Origin: a virus
Taxonomy: Duplodnaviria > Caudoviricetes
DNA: 48,532 nt
Strand: one strand, 5' to 3'
IMG/VR virus record: IMGVR_UViG_3300031860_000003
Location: 1 to 48,532 of that record
The notes below the pieces were generated by a model. It saw nothing but the letters and a program-made list of their open reading frames with translations, searched no databases and was not told where the DNA came from. The position numbers and the translations under genes were made by a program. The stretch's first letter is position 1. Each line of letters begins with the position of its first letter. Of this stretch, positions 3,561 through 36,699 are shown in pieces.

Positions 3561-5063
3561 TCACCGCCCGCGCCGTCTGGTTCCGCCTGCCAGCGCCGGC
3601 GTCATCATCATCGACGGCTCGCTGACCGGGACCACCATCACGAAGCCCTGCGCGTCGGTCGGGCTGAACTGATACAGGCCGATAGCACCGTCGTTGAACA
3701 GGTTGAAGTACAGGGTGCCCTCGGCCGGGTTGGAGTGATTCGCCGGCACCACCGCCAGCCCGTTGGTCGGGGTGATCGCGTTACCCGGATTGCTCGGATC
3801 GGAATAGTGCGGCATACAGTTCACTTCGCCCAGGTCGTTGCCGAAGCCGCGGCCGATCAGCGCGCCCGACGTCGGGTCGCCCAGGCGGATCTCCACACCG
3901 ATCTGCAGCGGGTTGGCCGAGAGCTCGAGGCCGAACGCACCGAGATGGCCCCACACCACCGGGGTCCACGGAAAGGCTTGCGGCGGAATCGGAAACGAGC
4001 CGATCGCGGCGCGCTGGGATAGGCCACTAAAGCCGGTGAACGAAGCCTCCGGCATGGAGTAGGGCGAGGGGATCAGCTGGGAGATCGCCACCGGCACCCA
4101 GACCGGGTAGTTCACCGTGGCACCGTTGGTGGCGGGCGGGGTCGCCAGTGTGCCCGTCGCCCCGGTGTCGGCGTAGGCGTTGGTGGTGACGGTGGCGATC
4201 AGGTGGTTCTCGCCGCCCGAGGCCAGGCCGCGGTAGAGGTTGTAGCTGTCCGCGCCCGGCACCGTGTCCCAGATCAGGTTGGCGGTCGATCCGGTGCCCA
4301 CCGTGGTCGAGCACTCGTTGGACGGAGTGGACTCCCCGGCCGCCGAGTTGACCGTGACCATCCAGAAGTATTCGCCGGACAGGCTGCCGCCGGAGGACAG
4401 GTGCGACACCGCCAGCCCGGTGGGCGGGCTGAGGTGACCGGCCACGGTGCGCCCGGTGTAGCCCAGCACGTCGCCGGGTGCCACGCCGCCGGACAGGTCG
4501 ACGTCGGGGCACAGCGCCATCGCCGGCGCCGGCCCGGTCGGGCCGACCGGGATGGACAGGTTCATGTTCCACGTCGGATACAGCGGGGTGCCGCCGATCG
4601 GGTCCACGTAGGACGCCATATCGGGCGGGATGATGTCCACCGACGGGGTGATGATCGGGCACGGTCCCGGCGGCCCGGGGGTGCCCAGCATGACCCGCCG
4701 CCAGCTCAGCCCGTACCAGATGTAGGCCGACGCCCCGATGATCGCGCCCTTGGAGTCCACGTCGTCGAGCAGCCAGAACTTGCCGATGTCGGCCTGGCTG
4801 TTCTGCAGCGTCTGCGGCAGGTCGCTCGGGTCGTCGACGCTCATGTCGTTTTCGAGCTTGAGCGCGAACGCCGCCGGGCCGGGCACGCCCTGATCGCCCA
4901 CCACCGCCGGGAACACCAGCGACCCGATGTCCCCGTAAATCTCGTAGGTCCCCGAGAACGGGGACTGTGAGTCGGGCGGGATGACCGACCCGAACAGGTA
5001 GGTGCCGACCAGGTAGGAGGCCACGAAGGACTGGTCGCCGGGGGCCGAGAGTGAGGTTGTCAT
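3561..5063 (-). CDS. Minor tail protein with short collagen-like GxxG motifs and an FN3-like insert
   Basis: 500 aa; GTPGPPGP; PPTGLAVS...YNLYRG...YADTG FN3-like pattern; position after the hub gene. Confidence 0.8.
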   Translation of the reverse strand: MTTSLSAPGDQSFVASYLVGTYLFGSVIPPDSQSPFSGTYEIYGDIGSLVFPAVVGDQGVPGPAAFALKLENDMSVDDPSDLPQTLQNSQADIGKFWLLDDVDSKGAIIGASAYIWYGLSWRRVMLGTPGPPGPCPIITPSVDIIPPDMASYVDPIGGTPLYPTWNMNLSIPVGPTGPAPAMALCPDVDLSGGVAPGDVLGYTGRTVAGHLSPPTGLAVSHLSSGGSLSGEYFWMVTVNSAAGESTPSNECSTTVGTGSTANLIWDTVPGADSYNLYRGLASGGENHLIATVTTNAYADTGATGTLATPPATNGATVNYPVWVPVAISQLIPSPYSMPEASFTGFSGLSQRAAIGSFPIPPQAFPWTPVVWGHLGAFGLELSANPLQIGVEIRLGDPTSGALIGRGFGNDLGEVNCMPHYSDPSNPGNAITPTNGLAVVPANHSNPAEGTLYFNLFNDGAIGLYQFSPTDAQGFVMVVPVSEPSMMMTPALAGGTRRRGR

Positions 5064-6663
5064 GGCACCACCCTTTGTGCGGTTGCTTGCAGGAAGCCCT
5101 CCCCGGAGAACAGCGGATAGGCCACGCCCTGTGGCGGTTTGGCGATCGGCCCCATCGGCTGCACCATGACGAACAACTGGGCCGCGGACGGGTTGAAGTC
5201 ATAGACCCCGATCTGGCCGTCGTTCCACAGGTTCGTATAGAGGGTGCCCATCGCCGGGTCGGTGTGGTTGGCCGGCACCACCGCGTAGCCGTTGGTCGGG
5301 GTGAGGGAGCGGTTCCGGTTGTTCTGGTTGTTCGCGCTCGAGGAGTAGTGCGGGTAGATGTTGATCCGGCCCAGCGTGTTGCCGATCCCGCGGGCCACCT
5401 GGATGCCCTGGGTGGGGTCGCCGAGCAGCACCTGCGCGCCGATCCGGAACGGATCGCCGGTGATGAATTCCAGCACGTCGTTGATCAGGTTGCCGCCGGA
5501 GTCGATGATGCCGATCACCGCCGACGACAGATCCGGTGGGATCAGGTTGGTGATGTCGGTGACGATCGGCGCGATCACCTGGGCGCCCAGCGTGTTGACG
5601 AACTCCAGCAGGGTGTTCGCCGCGCCCTGCAGGGTGGCGTTGATGTTGTTGACACCGACCGTGACCAGGTTCTCCAGGAATCCCTCGATGGTGGCCGGGT
5701 CGGCGTTGTAGGGGATCGGTGGGGTGGTGGCGCCGCCGACCGACAGGGTGAACGTGCCGCCCAGCGCGGTCACCTTGAGCAGCTGCTGGACGACGCGACC
5801 TGGGTGGTGTCCGTGCCGCCCAGGTGACCCCACACGATCGGCGTCCACGGATAGGGCTGCGGCGGGATCTGGAAGGAGCCGACACCGACCTGCTGGGCTA
5901 CCCCGCTGTAGGAGGCGAACGAGCCCTCCGGCATCGACCAGGTGGTCGGCAGCTGCGCGCCGATGCCGCCCGGGGCCCAGACCTCCTGGCCGGCCGCGGT
6001 GTAGCGCCCGGTGAACATCATCAGGTCCCCGTTGACCGGCGCGGCGGTGATTTCGTCGACGTCGGGGAAGTCGAAGATCGGGGTGGTCTGCCCGCACTGG
6101 CCGGCCGGGGCGGCCAGCTCGAACTCCCACGTCGGCGAGAGCCGCGGCCCGGAGGTGTTGACGAAGGACTTGTTCGGGTTGTTGCTCTCGTCGTAGGGCG
6201 GGATCAAATCGACGATCGGGGTGATGGCCGGCACCGGACCCGGCGGCCCGAAGCTGCCCATCATCATCCGGCGGTAGGCGGTGCCGTACCAGATGTACAT
6301 CGTCTGGCCGATCACCTGGCCCTGGTCGTTGAGGTCCTGCAGGACGTAGTAGCGCCCGATGTAGTCGGGGTTGTTGGGCAGCGGGACCAGGTCGGCCTCG
6401 GAGTTGACGGTGGGGTCGACGACCTCGCGGACCTGGAAGCCGATCTGGCCGGGCGGCCCCTGCGGGCCCTGCAGCGCGGCTTTGTCCAGGTCGCCCTGGT
6501 CGGCCATCACCTTCAGCGCCGCGGTGTAGCCGTTCGGGGTGTCGGGCATGGTGGTTTCGGCCGACACGTCCAGCTTGACGACGCAGTGGCCCAGCGGCAC
6601 CAGCTCGCCCAGCTGCGGCGGCGCCGGCGTCGGCACGCCCAGCGGATCCATCAGCGACGTCAC
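5060..6663 (-). CDS. Minor tail protein paralogous to 3561-5063, split by a 1-nt frameshift near 5795
   Basis: N-terminal part in ORF 5770-6663 and C-terminal part in the frame of ORF 5060-6670; both halves are collinear with the 500-aa neighbour. Confidence 0.8.
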
Positions 6664-7355
6664 GGCTCACCTCCGTGTCCGTTGGTGGACACCGAGTCGT
6701 GTGGACAGGACTCGTTTGGCTCCAGGGCCCTGCCGCAGACCGAGCAGACCCACTCCTCGGTGATCACCGGCGTGACCGCCCAGCCGCCCAGGTCCTGGGG
6801 CGGGTCGCCGTCGCGCTGCGCGGCCAGCCGCCGGGTGTCGGGCGGCAGATGGTGATCGCTCGAGCGGTGCTCGGGCAACAGTTCCTCGGCGGCGTCATCG
6901 GCGGCGCGGGCGTCCACCCAGGTGTAGGCACCCTCCGTCACGCCGGGGCCGCCGTAGTGGCGCTTCTTGATGTAGCAGCGGCCGCTCGAGCGGAAGCCCA
7001 GCAGCGCCAGCGTCCAGGCGATCGCCACCTTGGGCTGCGTCATGTGCACCCCGGACAGGTCGACGACGTGCCCGTCGGGGTCGTTGGGGTAGTCCAGGTT
7101 GTGATAAATCTCGATATAGGCGGCCTGCACCTTGAGGATCTCCTGCGCGCGCTTGCGCTCCTCGCCCTGCAATCCGGCCTGCTCGATGGTCTTGGGCGTC
7201 AGCTCGCCGTACTCGCCGAACTGCAACTTTGGCACCCCGCGCGAGCCCGCGTAGGGGTTGGTGCCGGAGAACCCGTAGCGCGAGCTGCCGATGCGGTTAT
7301 TGGAGCGCCCCGGCCCTTGCCGCGGTACGCCTTCCACTATGTTCTCGTCGTCCAT
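6660..7355 (-). CDS. Tail-region protein, possibly mycobacteriophage gene-29/DUF2744-like
   Basis: 231 aa, coupled to both neighbours; AWTLALLGFR segment and synteny. Confidence 0.55.
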   Translation of the reverse strand: MDDENIVEGVPRQGPGRSNNRIGSSRYGFSGTNPYAGSRGVPKLQFGEYGELTPKTIEQAGLQGEERKRAQEILKVQAAYIEIYHNLDYPNDPDGHVVDLSGVHMTQPKVAIAWTLALLGFRSSGRCYIKKRHYGGPGVTEGAYTWVDARAADDAAEELLPEHRSSDHHLPPDTRRLAAQRDGDPPQDLGGWAVTPVITEEWVCSVCGRALEPNESCPHDSVSTNGHGGEP

Positions 7356-24785: not shown

Positions 24786-24855
24786 GGCAAGGTTCGGCGA
24801 GGCGCGGCCTGGTAGGGCACGGCTAGGCATGGCACGGCTCGGCTGGGTTTGGCAA
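24786..24855 (+). repeat. GGY-NN pentamer array 1 (14 perfect units)
   Basis: GGCAA GGTTC GGCGA GGCGC GGCCT GGTAG GGCAC GGCTA GGCAT GGCAC GGCTC GGCTG GGTTT GGCAA. Confidence 0.9.
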
Positions 24856-24858
24856 GGG

Positions 24859-24893
24859 GAAGCCCCCGGTGTAAACCGGGGGCTTCGCCTTTG
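24859..24893. terminator. 12-bp hairpin, probably a bidirectional terminator
   Basis: GAAGCCCCCGGT-GTAA-ACCGGGGGCTTC; follows the capsid stop on minus and array 1 on plus; short U tails. Confidence 0.75.
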
Positions 24894-32263: not shown

Positions 32264-32345
32264 GGGGTAATGGTCCCGCGCTAGTTTCCGTTACTGGGGT
32301 CAAGCACATTCCCCGGCGTGTCGCATTTCGCTTTACGCGAAACAG

Positions 32346-32421
32346 TAGCGCGGGTCGGATTCGAACCGACGATTGCTTGGTTATGAGCCAAGAGGGATAG
32401 GCCTGGCTTCCCTACCGCGCT
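32346..32421 (-). tRNA. tRNA-Met(CAT)
   Basis: Cloverleaf; anticodon loop CTCATAA. Confidence 0.9.
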
Positions 32422-32423
32422 CG

Positions 32424-32495
32424 CTGAGGTGCCTGGACTCGAACCAAGATCAACGGAGCCAGAGTCCGTTGTGCTGCCGTTTACACCACACCTCA
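32424..32495 (-). tRNA. tRNA-Gln(CTG)
   Basis: Cloverleaf; loop CTCTGGC. Confidence 0.9.
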
Positions 32496-32499
32496 TTCG

Positions 32500-32572
32500 C
32501 TGACCTGGGAGGAGTCGAACCTCCAACTACTGGATTAACAGTCCAGCGTTCTGCCAGTTGAACTACAGGCCA
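32500..32572 (-). tRNA. tRNA-Asn(GTT)
   Basis: Cloverleaf; loop CTGTTAA. Confidence 0.92.
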
Positions 32573-32576
32573 CCGG

Positions 32577-32649
32577 CGCCTCCTGCCGGGATCGAACCGG
32601 CGATCTCCTGGATGAGAGCCAGGTGAGATGACCGCTACTCCAAGGAGGC
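32577..32649 (-). tRNA. tRNA-Glu(CTC)
   Basis: Cloverleaf; loop CTCTCAT. Confidence 0.9.
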
Positions 32650-32650
32650 G

Positions 32651-32723
32651 TGATTCCGATCGGACTCGAACCGATGTCGTCCGGCTTGAAAGGCCGGCAG
32701 GCTAACCGCTACCCCACGGAACC
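32651..32723 (-). tRNA. tRNA-Glu(TTC)
   Basis: Cloverleaf; loop CTTTCAA. Confidence 0.9.
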
Positions 32724-32727
32724 GGGG

Positions 32728-32799
32728 TGCGCCCGGTCGGGCTCGAACCGACGTCTCAGGATTAAAAGTCGAGAGCTAAACCATCTCAGCTACGGGCGC
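32728..32799 (-). tRNA. tRNA-Lys(TTT), two anticodon-stem mismatches
   Basis: Loop CTTTTAA; stem CTCGA/TCCTG. Confidence 0.82.
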
Positions 32800-32841
32800 C
32801 TGATTGGGCATGCGTTCAGGCTCCGGTTTACGCTGTCGCAT
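32776..32841 (-). CDS. Candidate leader peptide MRQRKPEPERMPNQAPVAEMV
   Basis: GAAGGAG SD, TATACT -10 at 32876-32881; codons match the downstream tRNAs. Confidence 0.7.
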   Translation of the reverse strand: MRQRKPEPERMPNQAPVAEMV

Positions 32842-32907
32842 TTCAGGCTCCTTCCGTGCTCGGGATGTCGCGTTGAGTATAACCTCCCACCGCGCCACAC
32901 TGGCGCA

Positions 32908-33954
32908 ATGGACGCTCAATCCCCGCCGCCGCCGGCGATCCCCGCCGATGACGACGAGCTGCACCAGATGCTGGTCGCCAAATTCCGCAGCCGCACCATC
33001 AGCTCCTGGGCGCTCACCGCACCCGCCATCCCCAGCCTGATCGACGAGTACATCGACACATGCGACAAGATGCTCGTCCCGGTGTCCCGGCCCTGGGCGT
33101 CGTTGACCCGCGAGGACAAGCGCGACATGCTCGCGCCCACCATCCAGGAGGCATTCGACGCCTCCCCCCGGTCGCGCGTCACCCTCGACTGGGATTCCAA
33201 CACCGACGTCCTGCGTATCTCCGCGCGGGTCCAGAGCATCAGCGACAGCTACGACTCCTGGCTGGACGATCGCGGCTGGGCCCCGTTCGGCACCCACGCC
33301 GACGCGCGCGTGTGGCTGTTGGCCGAAGAACTCTCGGGGGGCCGGCGCGACATCCCCATCCTGGACATCGGCGCCGGCGTCGGCCGCAACGCGATCGCGC
33401 TGGCCCGGCACGGCTACCCGGTCGATGCGGTCGAGCTGGCCCCGCGGTTCGCCGCGCAGATCCGTGCCAACGCCGACTACCTGGAGCTGACCAACATCCG
33501 CGTCCTGGCCTGCGACGTGTTCGACACCGAGGACCTGCGCGACGACTATCAGCTGATCTTCGCCGCCGAGGTGGCCACCGACTGGCAGTTCGCCCAGTGC
33601 CGCAACCTGTTCGAGCTCGCCGCCAAGCGGTTGGCTCCCGGTGGCCTGCTGCTGTTCTCCGCGTTCATCGCGCGGCAGGGTTACACCCCCACCCAGGTGG
33701 CGCGCGAGCTCGGCCAGCACGCCCTGTGCCGCCCGTTCACCGCCGACGAGATGACCGAGGCGGCGGCGGGCCTGCCGCTCGAGCTGATCGCCGACGACTC
33801 GGTCTACGACTACGAGAAGGGGCACCTGCCCAAGGAGGCGTGGCCGCCTGCAATATGGTTCGAGGCTTGGGCCACCGGCAACAACCTGTTCGCCGGCGCG
33901 CCCGATGCGTCCCCGATGCAGCTGCGCTGGCTGGTCTACCGGCGCAACTACTGA
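32908..33954 (+). CDS. Class I SAM-dependent methyltransferase
   Basis: ILDIGAGVGRN motif I, VDAVEL and LAPGGLL; high GC3. Confidence 0.9.
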   Translation: MDAQSPPPPAIPADDDELHQMLVAKFRSRTISSWALTAPAIPSLIDEYIDTCDKMLVPVSRPWASLTREDKRDMLAPTIQEAFDASPRSRVTLDWDSNTDVLRISARVQSISDSYDSWLDDRGWAPFGTHADARVWLLAEELSGGRRDIPILDIGAGVGRNAIALARHGYPVDAVELAPRFAAQIRANADYLELTNIRVLACDVFDTEDLRDDYQLIFAAEVATDWQFAQCRNLFELAAKRLAPGGLLLFSAFIARQGYTPTQVARELGQHALCRPFTADEMTEAAAGLPLELIADDSVYDYEKGHLPKEAWPPAIWFEAWATGNNLFAGAPDASPMQLRWLVYRRNY

Positions 33955-33976
33955 GTGTCCACGGGGTGGACACCTG

Positions 33977-34046
33977 CTGCTCCGCCAGGATTCGAACCTG
34001 GACAACGAGAACCAAAATCTCGACGGCTGCCGGTTACCACGGAGCA
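33977..34046 (-). tRNA. tRNA-Gln(TTG), shortened D arm
   Basis: Loop TTTTGGT; intact T and acceptor arms. Confidence 0.8.
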
Positions 34047-34047
34047 G

Positions 34048-34117
34048 TGCCCCCGAGTGGAGTCGAACCACCGCAACCGAGTTTCGGAAACTCAGGGCCA
34101 GATCCGCTGGCGAAGGC
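34048..34117 (-). tRNA. tRNA-Arg(CCG), atypical D arm
   Basis: Loop TTCCGAA; D hairpin CCAG/CTGG directly abuts the acceptor stem. Confidence 0.7.
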
Positions 34118-34148
34118 TAATTGCGAATTCCGAAATTGGAAATTAGCG

Positions 34149-34222
34149 CCCCGCCGGAGGGATTCGAACCCCCATTTCATGGCTTAGAACACCACCGCTG
34201 ATCCAGATTCAGCTACGGCGGG
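34149..34222 (-). tRNA. tRNA-Arg(TCT)
   Basis: Cloverleaf; loop GTTCTAA. Confidence 0.82.
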
Positions 34223-34271
34223 CAGGCGAGACTGAGCGTTGTCGCCTTCGTCTCGCCTGCCGTCGCATCAT
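34209..34271 (-). CDS. Candidate leader peptide MMRRQARRRRQRSVSPARRS
   Basis: GGTGAGG SD; uses all six Arg codons and both Gln codons. Confidence 0.7.
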   Translation of the reverse strand: MMRRQARRRRQRSVSPARRS

Positions 34272-34350
34272 GACCTCACCTAACCGAACCAGACCACAGC
34301 CTGCCGTGCCCTATCATGCCCGACCTTGCCAGACCTATCCGGACCGGACC
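34271..34350 (-). repeat. GGY-NN pentamer array 2 (13 of 16 units perfect)
   Basis: Minus strand GGTCC GGTCC GGATA GGTCT GGCAA GGTCG GGCAT GATAG GGCAC GGCAG GCTGT GGTCT GGTTC GGTTA GGTGA GGTCA. Confidence 0.88.
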
Positions 34351-34371
34351 ATACGGCATCACATCACTGCG

Positions 34372-34444
34372 TGCCCTCACGAGGAATCGAACCCCGGGCC
34401 TCCTGGTCCGTAGCCAGGCGCTCTCTCCGCTGAGCTATGAAGGC
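34372..34444 (-). tRNA. tRNA-Arg(ACG)
   Basis: Cloverleaf; loop CTACGGA. Confidence 0.9.
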
Positions 34445-34445
34445 G

Positions 34446-34519
34446 TTCCTGCTCCTGGGATCGAACCAGGGTCCTTCTCCTTATCAGGGAGCTGCCCCTA
34501 CCAACTGGGCCAAGCAGGA
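34446..34519 (-). tRNA. tRNA-Ile(GAT)
   Basis: Cloverleaf; loop CTGATAA. Confidence 0.88.
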
Positions 34520-34520
34520 C

Positions 34521-34595
34521 TGGCGACCCATACGGGGAACGATCCCGCGACCTCCGGCTTGACGGGCCGGCGCTCTACCACTGAGCTAATGAGCC
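34521..34595 (-). tRNA. tRNA-Asp(GTC), encoded CCA
   Basis: Loop CCGTCAA; T loop ATCGTTC. Confidence 0.85.
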
Positions 34596-34671
34596 AGGTG
34601 GGCAACTCCCCTCCGACGAGAGGGGCGGCAGTTACCAGATCCGTAGCTGGGTTCGCCGATGGTAGTTACCC
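34596..34671 (-). ncRNA. Unknown structured RNA, copy A
   Basis: Fills the Gly-Asp spacer; homologous to 35673-35769. Confidence 0.55.
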
Positions 34672-34672
34672 G

Positions 34673-34745
34673 AGCACCCGACGGGCTACGATCCCGCGGC
34701 CTCCACGTTGGCAACGTGGCGCTCTGCCTGCTGAGCTACGAGTGC
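34673..34745 (-). tRNA. tRNA-Gly(GCC)
   Basis: Loop TTGCCAA; T loop ATCGTAG. Confidence 0.88.
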
Positions 34746-34774
34746 CTGCGCTTCGCTGATTCAGTTATTGTACG

Positions 34775-34850
34775 AGCCGCAGACAGGAATCGAACCTGCG
34801 CTCTGCTTGCTTACAAGGCAAGTGCTACAGCCAACATGAGCTACTGCGGC
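34775..34850 (-). tRNA. tRNA-Thr(TGT)
   Basis: Cloverleaf; loop CTTGTAA. Confidence 0.88.
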
Positions 34851-34853
34851 CTG

Positions 34854-34926
34854 TGCGCTCGGCAGGGATCGAACCTGCGGCCTGAAGATTAAGAGTCAAC
34901 AGCTCTACCGACTGAGCTACGAGCGC
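34854..34926 (-). tRNA. tRNA-Lys(CTT), two anticodon-stem mismatches
   Basis: Loop CTCTTAA; stem GTTGA/TCTTC. Confidence 0.85.
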
Positions 34927-34985
34927 GGATCAACCGGGGCGGTCGTCGGCTTTCGCCGCCCCTGTGTGCGCGTTCGTCGCATCAT
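34917..34985 (-). CDS. Candidate leader peptide MMRRTRTQGRRKPTTAPVDPRS
   Basis: AAG plus four Thr codons directly upstream of tRNA-Lys(CTT) and tRNA-Thr(TGT). Confidence 0.6.
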   Translation of the reverse strand: MMRRTRTQGRRKPTTAPVDPRS

Positions 34986-34986
34986 G

Positions 34987-35058
34987 TGTCCCGAGCAGGT
35001 ATCGAACCTGCGGCCTCCACCGTGTCGGGGTGGCGCTCTCCCGCTGAGCTACCAGGAC
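34987..35058 (-). tRNA. tRNA-Val(GAC)
   Basis: Cloverleaf; loop CCGACAC. Confidence 0.87.
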
Positions 35059-35139
35059 GGGGCCCAGGCTTTTGATGACGGTGAACCTGAGCCCGAAACA
35101 CCGGACGGTCAAGTCTCGTGGCGCCACGGCTTGACCCAG

Positions 35140-35211
35140 TGTCCCGTCGTGGTATCGAACCACGGGCCTCCTGCGTGTGAAACAGGCGCTCTCCCGCTGA
35201 GCTAACAGGAC
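35140..35211 (-). tRNA. tRNA-Val(CAC)
   Basis: Cloverleaf; loop TTCACAC. Confidence 0.88.
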
Positions 35212-35212
35212 G

Positions 35213-35285
35213 TGCCAAGACGTGGAATCGAACCACGGCCTCCGGCTTTTCAGACCGGCGCTGCTACCAACTGAGCTATCGAGGC
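35213..35285 (-). tRNA. tRNA-Phe(GAA)
   Basis: Loop CTGAAAA; two acceptor-stem mismatches. Confidence 0.83.
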
Positions 35286-35286
35286 G

Positions 35287-35360
35287 TGGACCAGGGCGGA
35301 TTCGAACCGTCATCCGTCTCCTTGCAAGGGAGCTGCTCTGCCAATTGGAGCTACAAGCCC
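35287..35360 (-). tRNA. tRNA-Ala(TGC)
   Basis: Loop CTTGCAA; G3:U70 identity pair. Confidence 0.88.
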
Positions 35361-35450
35361 GTATGAAGTTGGGTCCGGTCCTTCGCGTCTTTCGTTCCGG
35401 CTACCCCCACCGAGGTCTGACCTCGCGCTGGTGGACGAGGGGCGCTAGCG

Positions 35451-35521
35451 AGCGGATGACCGGAATCGAACCGGTGTCGGCAGCTCGGAGGGCTGCTGCG
35501 CGGCCACTACGCCACACCCGC
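35451..35521 (-). tRNA. tRNA-Gly(TCC)
   Basis: Loop CCTCCGA; U73. Confidence 0.85.
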
Positions 35522-35596
35522 TGGGGTAACCGACCGGAATCGAACCGGCGTCCTCGGGGCCACATCCCGATGCTCTGCCATTGAGCTACGACTACC
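35522..35596 (-). tRNA. tRNA-His(GTG), G-1:C73 and encoded CCA
   Basis: Cloverleaf; loop ATGTGGC. Confidence 0.9.
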
Positions 35597-35597
35597 G

Positions 35598-35669
35598 AGC
35601 GCCCGGCGTGGGTCGAACACGCTTAAGCGGGTTTGCAGCCCGCCACCTGATCCGTTCGGTCACAGGCGC
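35598..35669 (-). tRNA. tRNA-Cys(GCA)
   Basis: Loop CTGCAAA; U73. Confidence 0.88.
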
Positions 35670-35672
35670 TTT

Positions 35673-35769
35673 GGTGGTGGCGCTCCCCTCCGGCGAGAGG
35701 GGCGACACGCTCCCCGAGTGGGGAGCTCATACCGGAACCGTAGCCGGATTGGCCGTTGGTAGCGTCACC
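35673..35769 (-). ncRNA. Unknown structured RNA, copy B
   Basis: Homologous to 34596-34671 with an extra hairpin; starts 7 nt after TGGACC-N17-TACCGT. Confidence 0.55.
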
Positions 35770-35816
35770 GTGTACCACGGTAAACCCTGCCGCCGACAAG
35801 GTCCATCCATTTTCCG

Positions 35817-35897
35817 TACCGGCAGCAGGAGTCGAACCTGCACAGCTCACGCCACGGATTTACAGTCCGCTTCCCTCGCCACATGGGATGCGCCGGC
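35817..35897 (-). tRNA. tRNA-Tyr(GTA)
   Basis: Loop CTGTAAA; extended variable arm. Confidence 0.88.
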
Positions 35898-35898
35898 G

Positions 35899-35969
35899 CA
35901 CGCTCCCCAGGAATCGAACCCAGACCAAGAGGTTTGGAAGCTCTTGTGCTACCACTACACCAGGAGCGC
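35899..35969 (-). tRNA. tRNA-Trp(CCA)
   Basis: Loop TTCCAAA; G73. Confidence 0.85.
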
Positions 35970-35973
35970 CTCG

Positions 35974-36047
35974 TCGGGGAGGCAGGATTCGAACCTGCGA
36001 TGTCTTGATCCCAAATCAAGTGGGCTGCCTGGCTGCCCTACACCCCG
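35974..36047 (-). tRNA. tRNA-Pro(TGG)
   Basis: Loop TTTGGGA; C1-G72, A73. Confidence 0.9.
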
Positions 36048-36080
36048 GTTTGGTCCCGGCGTGTGTCCACGACCGGGCGG

Positions 36081-36116
36081 CTAGCGCCAGGGATACGGTC
36101 GTGGGGCGAAGAACAT
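36081..36116 (-). CDS. Candidate leader peptide MFFAPRPYPWR
   Basis: TATGAT 7 nt before the ATG (leaderless spacing); Pro/Tyr/Trp codons upstream of tRNA-Pro, -Trp and -Tyr. Confidence 0.72.
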   Translation of the reverse strand: MFFAPRPYPWR

Positions 36117-36132
36117 GGTGATCATCATAGCG

Positions 36133-36204
36133 TGCGCTTCCAGGGATTCGAACCCTGACTGGGCCGGGTTTAAGCCAGCTGCCTCTGCGTTGGGCTAGAA
36201 GCGC
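36133..36204 (-). tRNA. tRNA-Leu(TAA), short variable loop
   Basis: Cloverleaf; loop CTTAAAC. Confidence 0.85.
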
Positions 36205-36205
36205 G

Positions 36206-36278
36206 TACACCCTCTGGGATTCGAACCCAGACTTGACCGGGTTTGAGCCGGATGCCTCTCCCGTTGGGCTAAGGGTGC
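36206..36278 (-). tRNA. tRNA-Leu(CAA), short variable loop
   Basis: Cloverleaf; loop CTCAAAC. Confidence 0.85.
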
Positions 36279-36284
36279 TTGCCG

Positions 36285-36358
36285 TACTCCCGGTGCGATT
36301 CGAACGCACACTGTCTGGTTCCTGAGACCAGTGCTTCTGCCAGTTGAGCGACGGGAGC
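36285..36358 (-). tRNA. tRNA-Leu(CAG), short variable loop
   Basis: Cloverleaf; loop CTCAGGA. Confidence 0.85.
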
Positions 36359-36387
36359 AGGTTTCTTGTTTCTTTGTTTCGTAAAAG

Positions 36388-36476
36388 CGGAGGGCGGAGG
36401 TCATGCTCCCCGAGCGCCATCACGCGCTACCCGGTATTCGACGCCGGTCGCAGGCTATCCCGCTGCTTCACCCTCC
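36388..36476 (-). tRNA. tRNA-Ser(CGA), atypical T arm
   Basis: Loop GTCGAAT; long variable arm AGCGC/GCGCT; T arm lacks TTC. Confidence 0.7.
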
Positions 36477-36477
36477 G

Positions 36478-36562
36478 AGGAGGGCTACGGGATTGAACCG
36501 TAAGCGGTGAGGCTTGCTCGGGTTAGCAACCCGGCTCCGGCGACCAACCGGAAAAGCCCTCC
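36478..36562 (-). tRNA. tRNA-Ser(GCT)
   Basis: Loop TTGCTAA; long variable arm. Confidence 0.82.
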
Positions 36563-36566
36563 AGAC

Positions 36567-36614
36567 TTAGCTAAGTCGTAAGGGACTAGATGACAGCAAT
36601 CGGTGGTCGCGCAC
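36567..36614 (-). CDS. Candidate leader peptide MRDHRLLSSSPLRLS
   Basis: TACACT 7 nt before the GTG; 8 Leu/Ser codons upstream of the Ser/Leu tRNAs. Confidence 0.75.
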   Translation of the reverse strand: MRDHRLLSSSPLRLS

Positions 36615-36631
36615 GTCAAGCAGTGTAGCAG

Positions 36632-36699
36632 TGCCGCACAAGGGATTTGAACCCTTCCCGTTCGCTTGGTTAGGGCTCACGGTCTGCCGTCGGTGCGGC
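36632..36699 (-). ncRNA. tRNA-like element or pseudo-tRNA
   Basis: Perfect 7-bp acceptor and AAGGG-TTCAAAT-CCCTT T arm; no canonical anticodon arm. Confidence 0.5.

Follow-up and report, generated by a model that had tools for sequence, protein, structure and literature searches.

Codon-matched leader reading frames before tRNA blocks of a phage tRNA array suggest attenuator-like control of tRNA genes

What phages gain from their tRNA arrays has long been debated, and phage tRNAs have been discussed as an answer to host tRNA cleavage (PMC10264068). The tRNA clusters of cluster C mycobacteriophages (PMC10264068, PMC6409571) are similar in gene order to the array described here, include a tRNA with a CTA anticodon and carry the same Pro/Trp/Tyr leader; the accessible portions of those papers address tRNA content and nuclease resistance and contain no leader ORF. 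The Anabaena trn operon is also a mobile-type tRNA array tied to translational stress, and the accessible text on it proposes control at the promoter through a repressor (PMC8421152). The strings "leader" and "attenuat" are absent from the text of PMC8421152, PMC6582537, and PMC6409571. A search of full texts, for the most part of open-access papers, returned no paper on leader-ORF control of tRNA genes.

The enterobacterial thr and ilvGMEDA operons have multivalent leader-peptide attenuators. Like the phage leaders considered here, the classical attenuators (trp, his, and others; mechanism as in 10.1101/834739) have a short ORF with codons that match the downstream supply. The leaderless polycysteine sORF attenuators of the Ms5788A type lack a terminator, as the window leaders do; they belong to an actinobacterial setting, which is probable here too, and start leaderless or after a short leader, as is predicted for some of the present leaders. 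In them, stalling of the ribosome prevents a long duplex that would otherwise conceal a downstream element (10.1101/834739), which resembles what is predicted here.

The window, which is the whole stretch of 48,532 nucleotides that was analyzed (positions 1–48,532 of IMG/VR record IMGVR_UViG_3300031860_000003), is a tailed-phage contig of 67% GC with terminase, portal, capsid, and tail genes. The best cultured matches of its terminase are mycobacteriophages (∼48% identity), and an actinobacterial host is therefore probable. The listed holders of the sequence are soil metagenomes; four DNA sequencing runs confirm the sequence but may be its own source, and the 24 holders listed include no RNA dataset. 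The tRNA array lies on the minus strand at 32345–36699, upstream of the terminase gene, and comprises 28 standard calls together with Arg(CCG), Ser(CGA), which was entered manually by its likeness to a called gene in a related array (L004), and a CTA-anticodon tRNA-like gene. The last of these (36631–36699) is just upstream of the promoter-like box of the Ser/Leu leader, as in cluster C mycobacteriophages. The 30 tRNAs form nine blocks, of which five are preceded by leader ORFs and four are not. A GC-rich hairpin motif is repeated before the Cys and Asp tRNAs (35670–35760 and 34596–34671) and occurs also in a second related array (L003:4574–4814), where it is in tandem and every copy has an MGACH frame before a Cys-His-Gly block. 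It has no Rfam match and is possibly another leader type or a structured RNA.

The sequence-only reading had described a 20-codon Arg/Gln ORF and a 12-bp hairpin before a block of three tRNA genes. The ORF is present as described, on the minus strand at 34271–34209, and ends with a stop codon inside tRNA-Arg(TCT). It reads ATG ATG CGA CGG CAG GCG AGA CGA AGG CGA CAA CGC ... CGC CGT AGC TGA, with the product MMRRQARRRRQRSVSPARRS. A purine run similar to a Shine-Dalgarno (SD) sequence (34274–34282, with AGGTGAGG at 34281–34274) stands ahead of it as the putative ribosome-binding site and forms the end of a 99-nt insert of GGNNN pentamer repeats (34272–34370) that is absent in the arrays L004 and L005. 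A second run of GGNNN pentamers is found in the window at 24786–24860 on the plus strand. The hairpin (34221–34261) is likewise real, with arms at 34261–34250 and 34232–34221, an inner 4-bp stem, and a 3′ arm that includes nucleotides 1 and 2 of tRNA-Arg(TCT); a predicted extension pairs 34267–34262 with the tRNA nucleotides at 34219–34214. All three genes of the block are there, one of them with a reservation. tRNA-Arg(TCT) (34148–34222), a standard call, is the first gene and tRNA-Gln(TTG) (33976–34046) is the last; tRNA-Arg(CCG) (34049–34113) is non-canonical, with a short D arm, and was called by ARAGORN at a lowered threshold after default ARAGORN and Rfam runs had missed it, and it is kept in all three related arrays. 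Because the window yielded no tRNA-Arg(CCT) call, the reading of AGG would fall to Arg(TCT), by wobble. The spacer between the two Arg genes (34114–34147) is an AT-rich hairpin and is longer and different in L005 (439–520). In L003, a tRNA-Arg gene of ∼97 nt (6638–6735) apparently has two tandem anticodon arms, CCT and then TCT.

A single ORF of this kind is modestly unusual. Dinucleotide shuffling of the 148-nt spacer (5000 shuffles) produced a short ORF containing all six Arg codons 42 times and one with AGA, CGG, and CAA in frame 167 times. The latter count, and the fact that off-frame Arg codons are common in GC-rich DNA, would suit an alternative in which the frame is an untranslated chance product and the hairpin a constitutive processing or spacer element. 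Among the 433 short ORFs of the window, only the Arg/Gln leader has all six Arg codons and six have the AGA, CGG, and CAA trio; a perfect 12-bp stem was obtained in none of 300 shuffles (longest, 9 bp). By itself, the Arg/Gln ORF is only modestly beyond chance, and the weight of the case comes from its conservation and from four sister leaders.

The Arg/Gln leader is not a lone Arg sensor but one of five leaders in the array, all of which match their own block: Ser/Leu, Pro/Trp/Tyr, Lys/Thr, Arg/Gln, and Lys/Glu/Asn/Gln/Met. The sister leaders are also on the minus strand. The Ser/Leu leader (VRDHRLLSSSPLRLS; 36567–36627 including its −10 box, start at 36614) is predicted to be leaderless, with an extended −10 box TG-C-TACACT, and precedes Ser-Ser-Leu-Leu-Leu. 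The Pro/Trp/Tyr leader MFFAPRPYPWR (36081–36129 including its −10 box, start at 36116), also predicted to be leaderless, has the −10 box TATGAT and precedes Pro-Trp-Tyr. The ATG of the Lys/Thr leader (MMRRTRTQGRRKPTT...; 34917–34985) abuts tRNA-Val(GAC), and the block that follows is Lys(CTT)-Thr(TGT). The fifth leader (MRQRKPEPERMPNQ...; 32776–32881 including its start signals, start at 32841) has a −10 box TATACT and the SD sequence GGAAGGAG and stands before Lys(TTT)-Glu-Glu-Asn-Gln-Met. A SAM-methyltransferase-like gene on the opposite strand (32800–33975), absent in L003–L005, is inserted between Gln(TTG) and this leader, and a −10 box is present again behind the insert.

Candidate leaders were collected as ORFs of 8–30 codons upstream of tRNA blocks, chosen by start signal alone (a −10 box 6–8 nt upstream, an SD sequence, or an ATG abutting a tRNA), after five non-canonical tRNAs had been added by hand. 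The selection was not fully blind, because the start-signal patterns were written after several leaders were known; it recovered the Ser/Leu leader, which had earlier been overlooked. The yield was 35 signal ORFs at 201 blocks in 19 arrays, a set that does not include phage Teal. Eight of the 19 arrays (pCBMA213_1, Aziz, Sixama, Finemlucis, L5, Soups, Jace, and Nadezda) had no signal ORF, so the leader design is patchy. Five of the seven signal ORFs in the window match their block, four of them ranking it first of nine and one second, whereas the two unmatched ORFs rank their own block eighth and ninth. Over all 35 ORFs, the block-match score was 60.7 against a permutation mean of −13.9 (0/20000 permutations), with orthologous leaders not being independent; a 16-ORF subset with one genome per lineage gave 1/20000. 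For the window alone the value was 91/100000, and 76/100000 with Arg ignored. Judged by eye, 27 of the 35 ORFs are matched and 8 are not. The match is also largely confined to one frame: non-Arg block residues were present in 71 of 84 cases in frame versus 29 and 38 of 84 in the other two frames. A block-specific match in frame that persists without Arg speaks against the untranslated chance frame.

The frame test bears on another alternative, that the triplets pair directly as RNA with tRNA anticodons in the fashion of a T-box, with no ribosome. Many triplets are indeed exact anticodon complements, but the match is locked to the frame that the start codon sets, and some of the matching triplets, TAT and AAT among them, are wobble codons; moreover, Rfam searches at the gathering score or with E values up to 5 returned tRNAs only, with no T-box or other leader match. 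Direct pairing is thus the most improbable of the readings considered here.

The use of all six Arg codons might be taken as a code. All six are present in the ORF, but as a code they were rejected: the CGT codon sits within the tRNA-Arg(TCT) gene, and CGA is common to all matched leaders, which weakens any Arg-specific reading. CGA makes up 56 of the 431 codons of the 27 matched leaders, as compared with 7.0 per 1000 in twelve window genes, an enrichment of ∼18-fold. Within matched leaders, the non-Arg codon that follows CGA is a cognate one in 39 of 48 cases versus 83 of 275 elsewhere (17/20 versus 39/127 in a 12-leader subset). CGA was slow in a Salmonella his-leader assay (PMC4046918). Because of its enrichment and because a cognate codon is usually next, CGA looks like a shared sensitizing or pacing codon that provides the context in all five leaders. 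The Arg content and the conservation of the peptide sequence in orthologues might instead point to small basic peptides that act on nucleic acids, the codon match being incidental. This is very unlikely, since the five leaders share only scattered Arg while their other residues track the tRNA block, the leaders use codons that are rare in the genes of the phage, and Pfam had no match for the three leader peptides tested.

Terminase and glycosyltransferase scans gave 34 loci, including copies of the window phage and three related arrays, L003, L004, and the partial L005, with the same tRNA gene order as the window. Orthologues of the Arg/Gln leader are at L004:6208, L005:314, and L003:6432. The leader before Arg(TCT) is MTARRRRFRRQPQRMSPSRRS in L004 and MTARRCRRRRQRNVSPSRRS in L005, and both keep AGA, AGG, CGG, and CGA-CAA. 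Their ATG directly follows the discriminator and C74 of tRNA-Arg(ACG), where the window has its 99-nt insert. The L003 leader, MLIRARRIRQRRQSR, stands before Ile-Arg-Arg-Arg-Gln and has gained two Ile codons, ATA and ATT; the gain of Ile codons on relocation of the leader is hard to reconcile with a chance frame. Related inserts of 600–800 nt separate Leu(TAA) from the Pro leader in L003 (3555–4340) and L004 (3898–4520) and are absent in the window. A pattern scan of the genome collection found no stretch, and a terminase scan there confirmed none of 31 candidates. The metagenome scan returned one contig, apparently of the same phage, and further viral scans added no new array (16 of 21 loci had no tRNAs in one, and all four contigs were already known in another).

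The start signals of the leaders are conserved as well. The window, L003, and L004 agree in the placement of their TANNNT boxes, although the letters vary: there is one ahead of the Ser leader, one ahead of the Pro leader, one between Tyr and Cys, where a TGGACC 17–18 nt farther upstream is also conserved, one behind Thr, and one ahead of the Lys(TTT) leader. The box 6–7 nt before the Pro-leader ATG is kept despite a replaced flank. One promoter-like element of the window, TGGACC and TACCGT separated by 17 nt (35777–35805), has its boxes kept in L003 and L004 with a variable spacer. The Pro and Ser leaders have a −10 box and 7 nt to the start, and a 5′ ATG or GTG is enough for translation in mycobacteria (PMC4633059). 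The Arg/Gln leader is internal to its unit and has the SD-like run; upstream of it, Gly(GCC), Asp, Ile, and Arg(ACG) (34371–34745), which have no leader, probably belong to the same transcription unit, with a promoter-like −10 box TACAAT at 34767–34772 (TATGAT in L003 and L004) as its likely start. A strict sigma-70 scan found no promoter, so the array promoters are putative ones. Behind gated blocks one to four there is always a conserved −10 box, and the fifth block ends the array. The coincidence of gated-block ends with the next box fits polarity, and it would explain why the Lys/Thr leader lacks GGC despite the nearby Gly(GCC). A scan for ATGs abutting a tRNA 3′ end gave 25 matches, with codon-matched frames only at the two already known. 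Where the tRNA was called, such an ATG opens an ORF of at least 100 codons at 5 separate places. Long ORFs whose ATG falls exactly on position 75 of a tRNA gene occur in the unrelated viral contigs L082/L083, L085, L088, L097, and L100, which suggests gene starts made by tRNA processing.

The 12-bp stem proved specific to the window and was rejected as a conserved feature. What is conserved in its place is a shorter inner hairpin together with a predicted outer helix: in nascent-RNA folds of the four Arg-leader orthologues, leader codons 2–6 pair with tRNA nucleotides 1–13, in a hairpin of about −27 to −38 kcal/mol. In L003, tRNA-Ile becomes the predicted partner of the leader 5′ arm. Decoy tRNA heads matched the pairing of the four orthologues in 9/147, 3/147, 11/147, and 7/149 cases, and shuffled leaders did so in 1/60, 4/60, 0/60, and 1/60. 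The median rank of anti-tRNA pairing was 0.157 for 26 leaders (orthologues again not independent) versus 0.598 for 72 control spacers; the leader at L003:3020 was omitted, since an uncalled tRNA separates it from the first one that was called. The Ser and Lys(TTT) leaders of the window and three C2-phage Pro leaders had no special anti-tRNA pairing, and the Asn and Gln codons of the Lys(TTT) leader are too near the tRNA for a ribosome stalled on them to leave it uncovered. Covariation is weak, with two-sided change in 1 of 15 consensus pairs among four sequences only. With a modeled ribosome at early codons, acceptor pairing rose from 0.35 to mostly 1.0 in L004, from 0.31 to 0.9–1.0 in L005, and from 0.00 to 0.5–0.6 in L003, and it dropped to zero once the ribosome entered the tRNA. 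The window model depends on context: acceptor pairing was 0.8–1.0 at codons 2–12 with 15 upstream nucleotides included and 0.1–0.4 at codons 5–9 without them.

These features are compatible with a four-step switch. The leader would be translated from the SD-like run in the window and, in the relatives, from the ATG at tRNA position 75, probably exposed by tRNA processing. CGA and then a cognate codon would form the stalling unit, so that a lack of charged or intact tRNA would hold the ribosome at codons 4–11. A ribosome held there is predicted to mask the leader arm and leave the tRNA uncovered, so that the first tRNA folds; a fast ribosome would reach the stop within the tRNA and cover the tRNA 5′ end, and after its release the leader arm would capture tRNA nucleotides 1–13. 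In the last and weakest step, Rho-dependent termination or decay may end the misfolded RNA, with loss of the whole block, and transcription of the next block would begin anew from the promoter-like box behind the gated one. For mycobacteria, Rho-dependent termination has been reported in a leader that carries a uORF (PMC12810186). No U-tract follows the predicted helix of the window leaders (the Arg/Gln leader has at most four T in any 8 nt), and mycobacterial RNA polymerase requires one, with no termination in its absence (PMC3993855); the output step is therefore a guess. That the leader-tRNA helix is itself a U-less intrinsic terminator, which would make the locus a near-classical attenuator, is improbable. 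The stability of the nascent hairpin in all four orthologues agrees with it, and PMC3993855 mentions proposals of U-less terminators in mycobacteria; the same work saw none act, however, and in the model a ribosome running to the stop within the tRNA would block the helix until the polymerase had passed.

The same codon sensor might act through a purely post-transcriptional output: the position of the ribosome, together with the anti-tRNA helix, would determine how accessible the precursor is to RNase P and how stable it is, and transcription would not be terminated. The leader stop inside the first tRNA would suit this, as would the position of the last sensed codon (CAA, codon 11) near the last modeled ribosome position that does not cover the tRNA and the empty strict promoter/terminator scan at the Arg/Gln leader; the polycysteine leaders of mycobacteria, in which a duplex conceals the SD sequence, are a close parallel (10.1101/834739). 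Polarity gives a better account of leaders whose codons extend to tRNAs two through six of a block and of the promoter-like boxes behind gated blocks, and we regard the purely post-transcriptional output as rather unlikely, although clearly ahead of the U-less terminator. Sensing by translation, whichever of these outputs it has, is very probable from the sequence comparisons. For the main reading, that the Arg/Gln leader is a ribosome-stalling sensor in which slow codon reading turns the Arg/Arg/Gln block on, via tRNA folding and Rho or decay, we estimate a probability of about 0.6. The codon-sensing interpretation is well supported by comparison (conservation, the block-specific match in frame, the Ile gain, and the start signals), and the leaders are real, conserved, and probably regulatory.

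Equivalents are present in cultured phages. In Cali, Myrna, ScoobyDoobyDoo, Tonenili, Phabba, and Bxz1, the Pro/Trp/Tyr block is preceded by an ORF that contains codons for these three amino acids and is predicted to be leaderless. The Cali leader region has 202 matching records, 129 of them over at least 80% of the region, and the leader is annotated in none of 25 records among the matches listed. In Phabba, MRTNRLNRQQ also precedes Gln-Asn. The Thr-Ile-Arg-Tyr-Arg-Arg block of StAugustine follows MRTRIIARPLVAPRRRYSRR, and this phage has a second leader with Trp, Gln, and Asn codons, and without Lys codons, before Trp-Asn-Gln-Lys-Lys. The Microbacterium phage Magritte (OR553905.1) has MNTAYRFEEHLDLPI before Pro-Asp-Glu-Glu-Tyr-Phe-Leu-Leu and a second, Ser-rich leader before a Ser-to-Ala run; these two unannotated elements before tRNA runs look like textbook attenuators with U-tract terminators (L078:2290–2400 and 4047–4190). 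The leaders of StAugustine and Magritte are independent and their tRNA order is different, which further lowers the standing of the chance frame, now improbable. In the Magritte model, the terminator 5′ arm is captured upstream with the ribosome at codons 2–12 or 2–13 and is freed with the ribosome at the stop. A stall would thus favor the antiterminator and arrival at the stop the terminator; a stall therefore likely means that the tRNA block is on.

Block-matched leaders would point to on-demand synthesis of the tRNAs and would reveal which shortages the phage anticipates; here the decoding of their own codons would control tRNA genes. We suggest, tentatively and with less confidence than in the sensor itself, that the array is a panel of independent sensors that read the host tRNA pool codon by codon and release only those blocks whose tRNAs have been destroyed or are uncharged, for example by an anticodon-nuclease defense; the tRNA gene would supply the switch with its own 5′ strand, and excision of the upstream tRNA would give rise to some of the sensor mRNAs as leaderless ones. 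Bxz1 and its relatives, StAugustine, Phabba, and Magritte, which carry the unannotated equivalents, all have laboratory hosts, so that the idea is open to direct test.

As compared with the classical attenuators, the window leaders have both a short upstream ORF with a start signal and matching control codons. Mutually exclusive helices are clear in the models of L003–L005 and, in the window, context-dependent with weak covariation. In the phage leaders, too, ribosome position is predicted to choose between RNA helices, and the two Magritte leaders model fully in this way. The phage leaders differ in that they would regulate tRNAs, match isoacceptor codons, and occur as several sensors per array; those of the window lack the U-tract terminator, which was seen only in Magritte. 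In the Ms5788A type, the sensed codons form a homopolymer run and pair with the ribosome-binding site of a downstream protein gene (10.1101/834739), whereas the predicted partner of the window leader is tRNA nucleotides 1–13, the phage leaders use single CGA-cognate pairs, and their output would be an RNA. The window design lacks the terminator of a multivalent attenuator but would work like one, with tRNA genes as its target.
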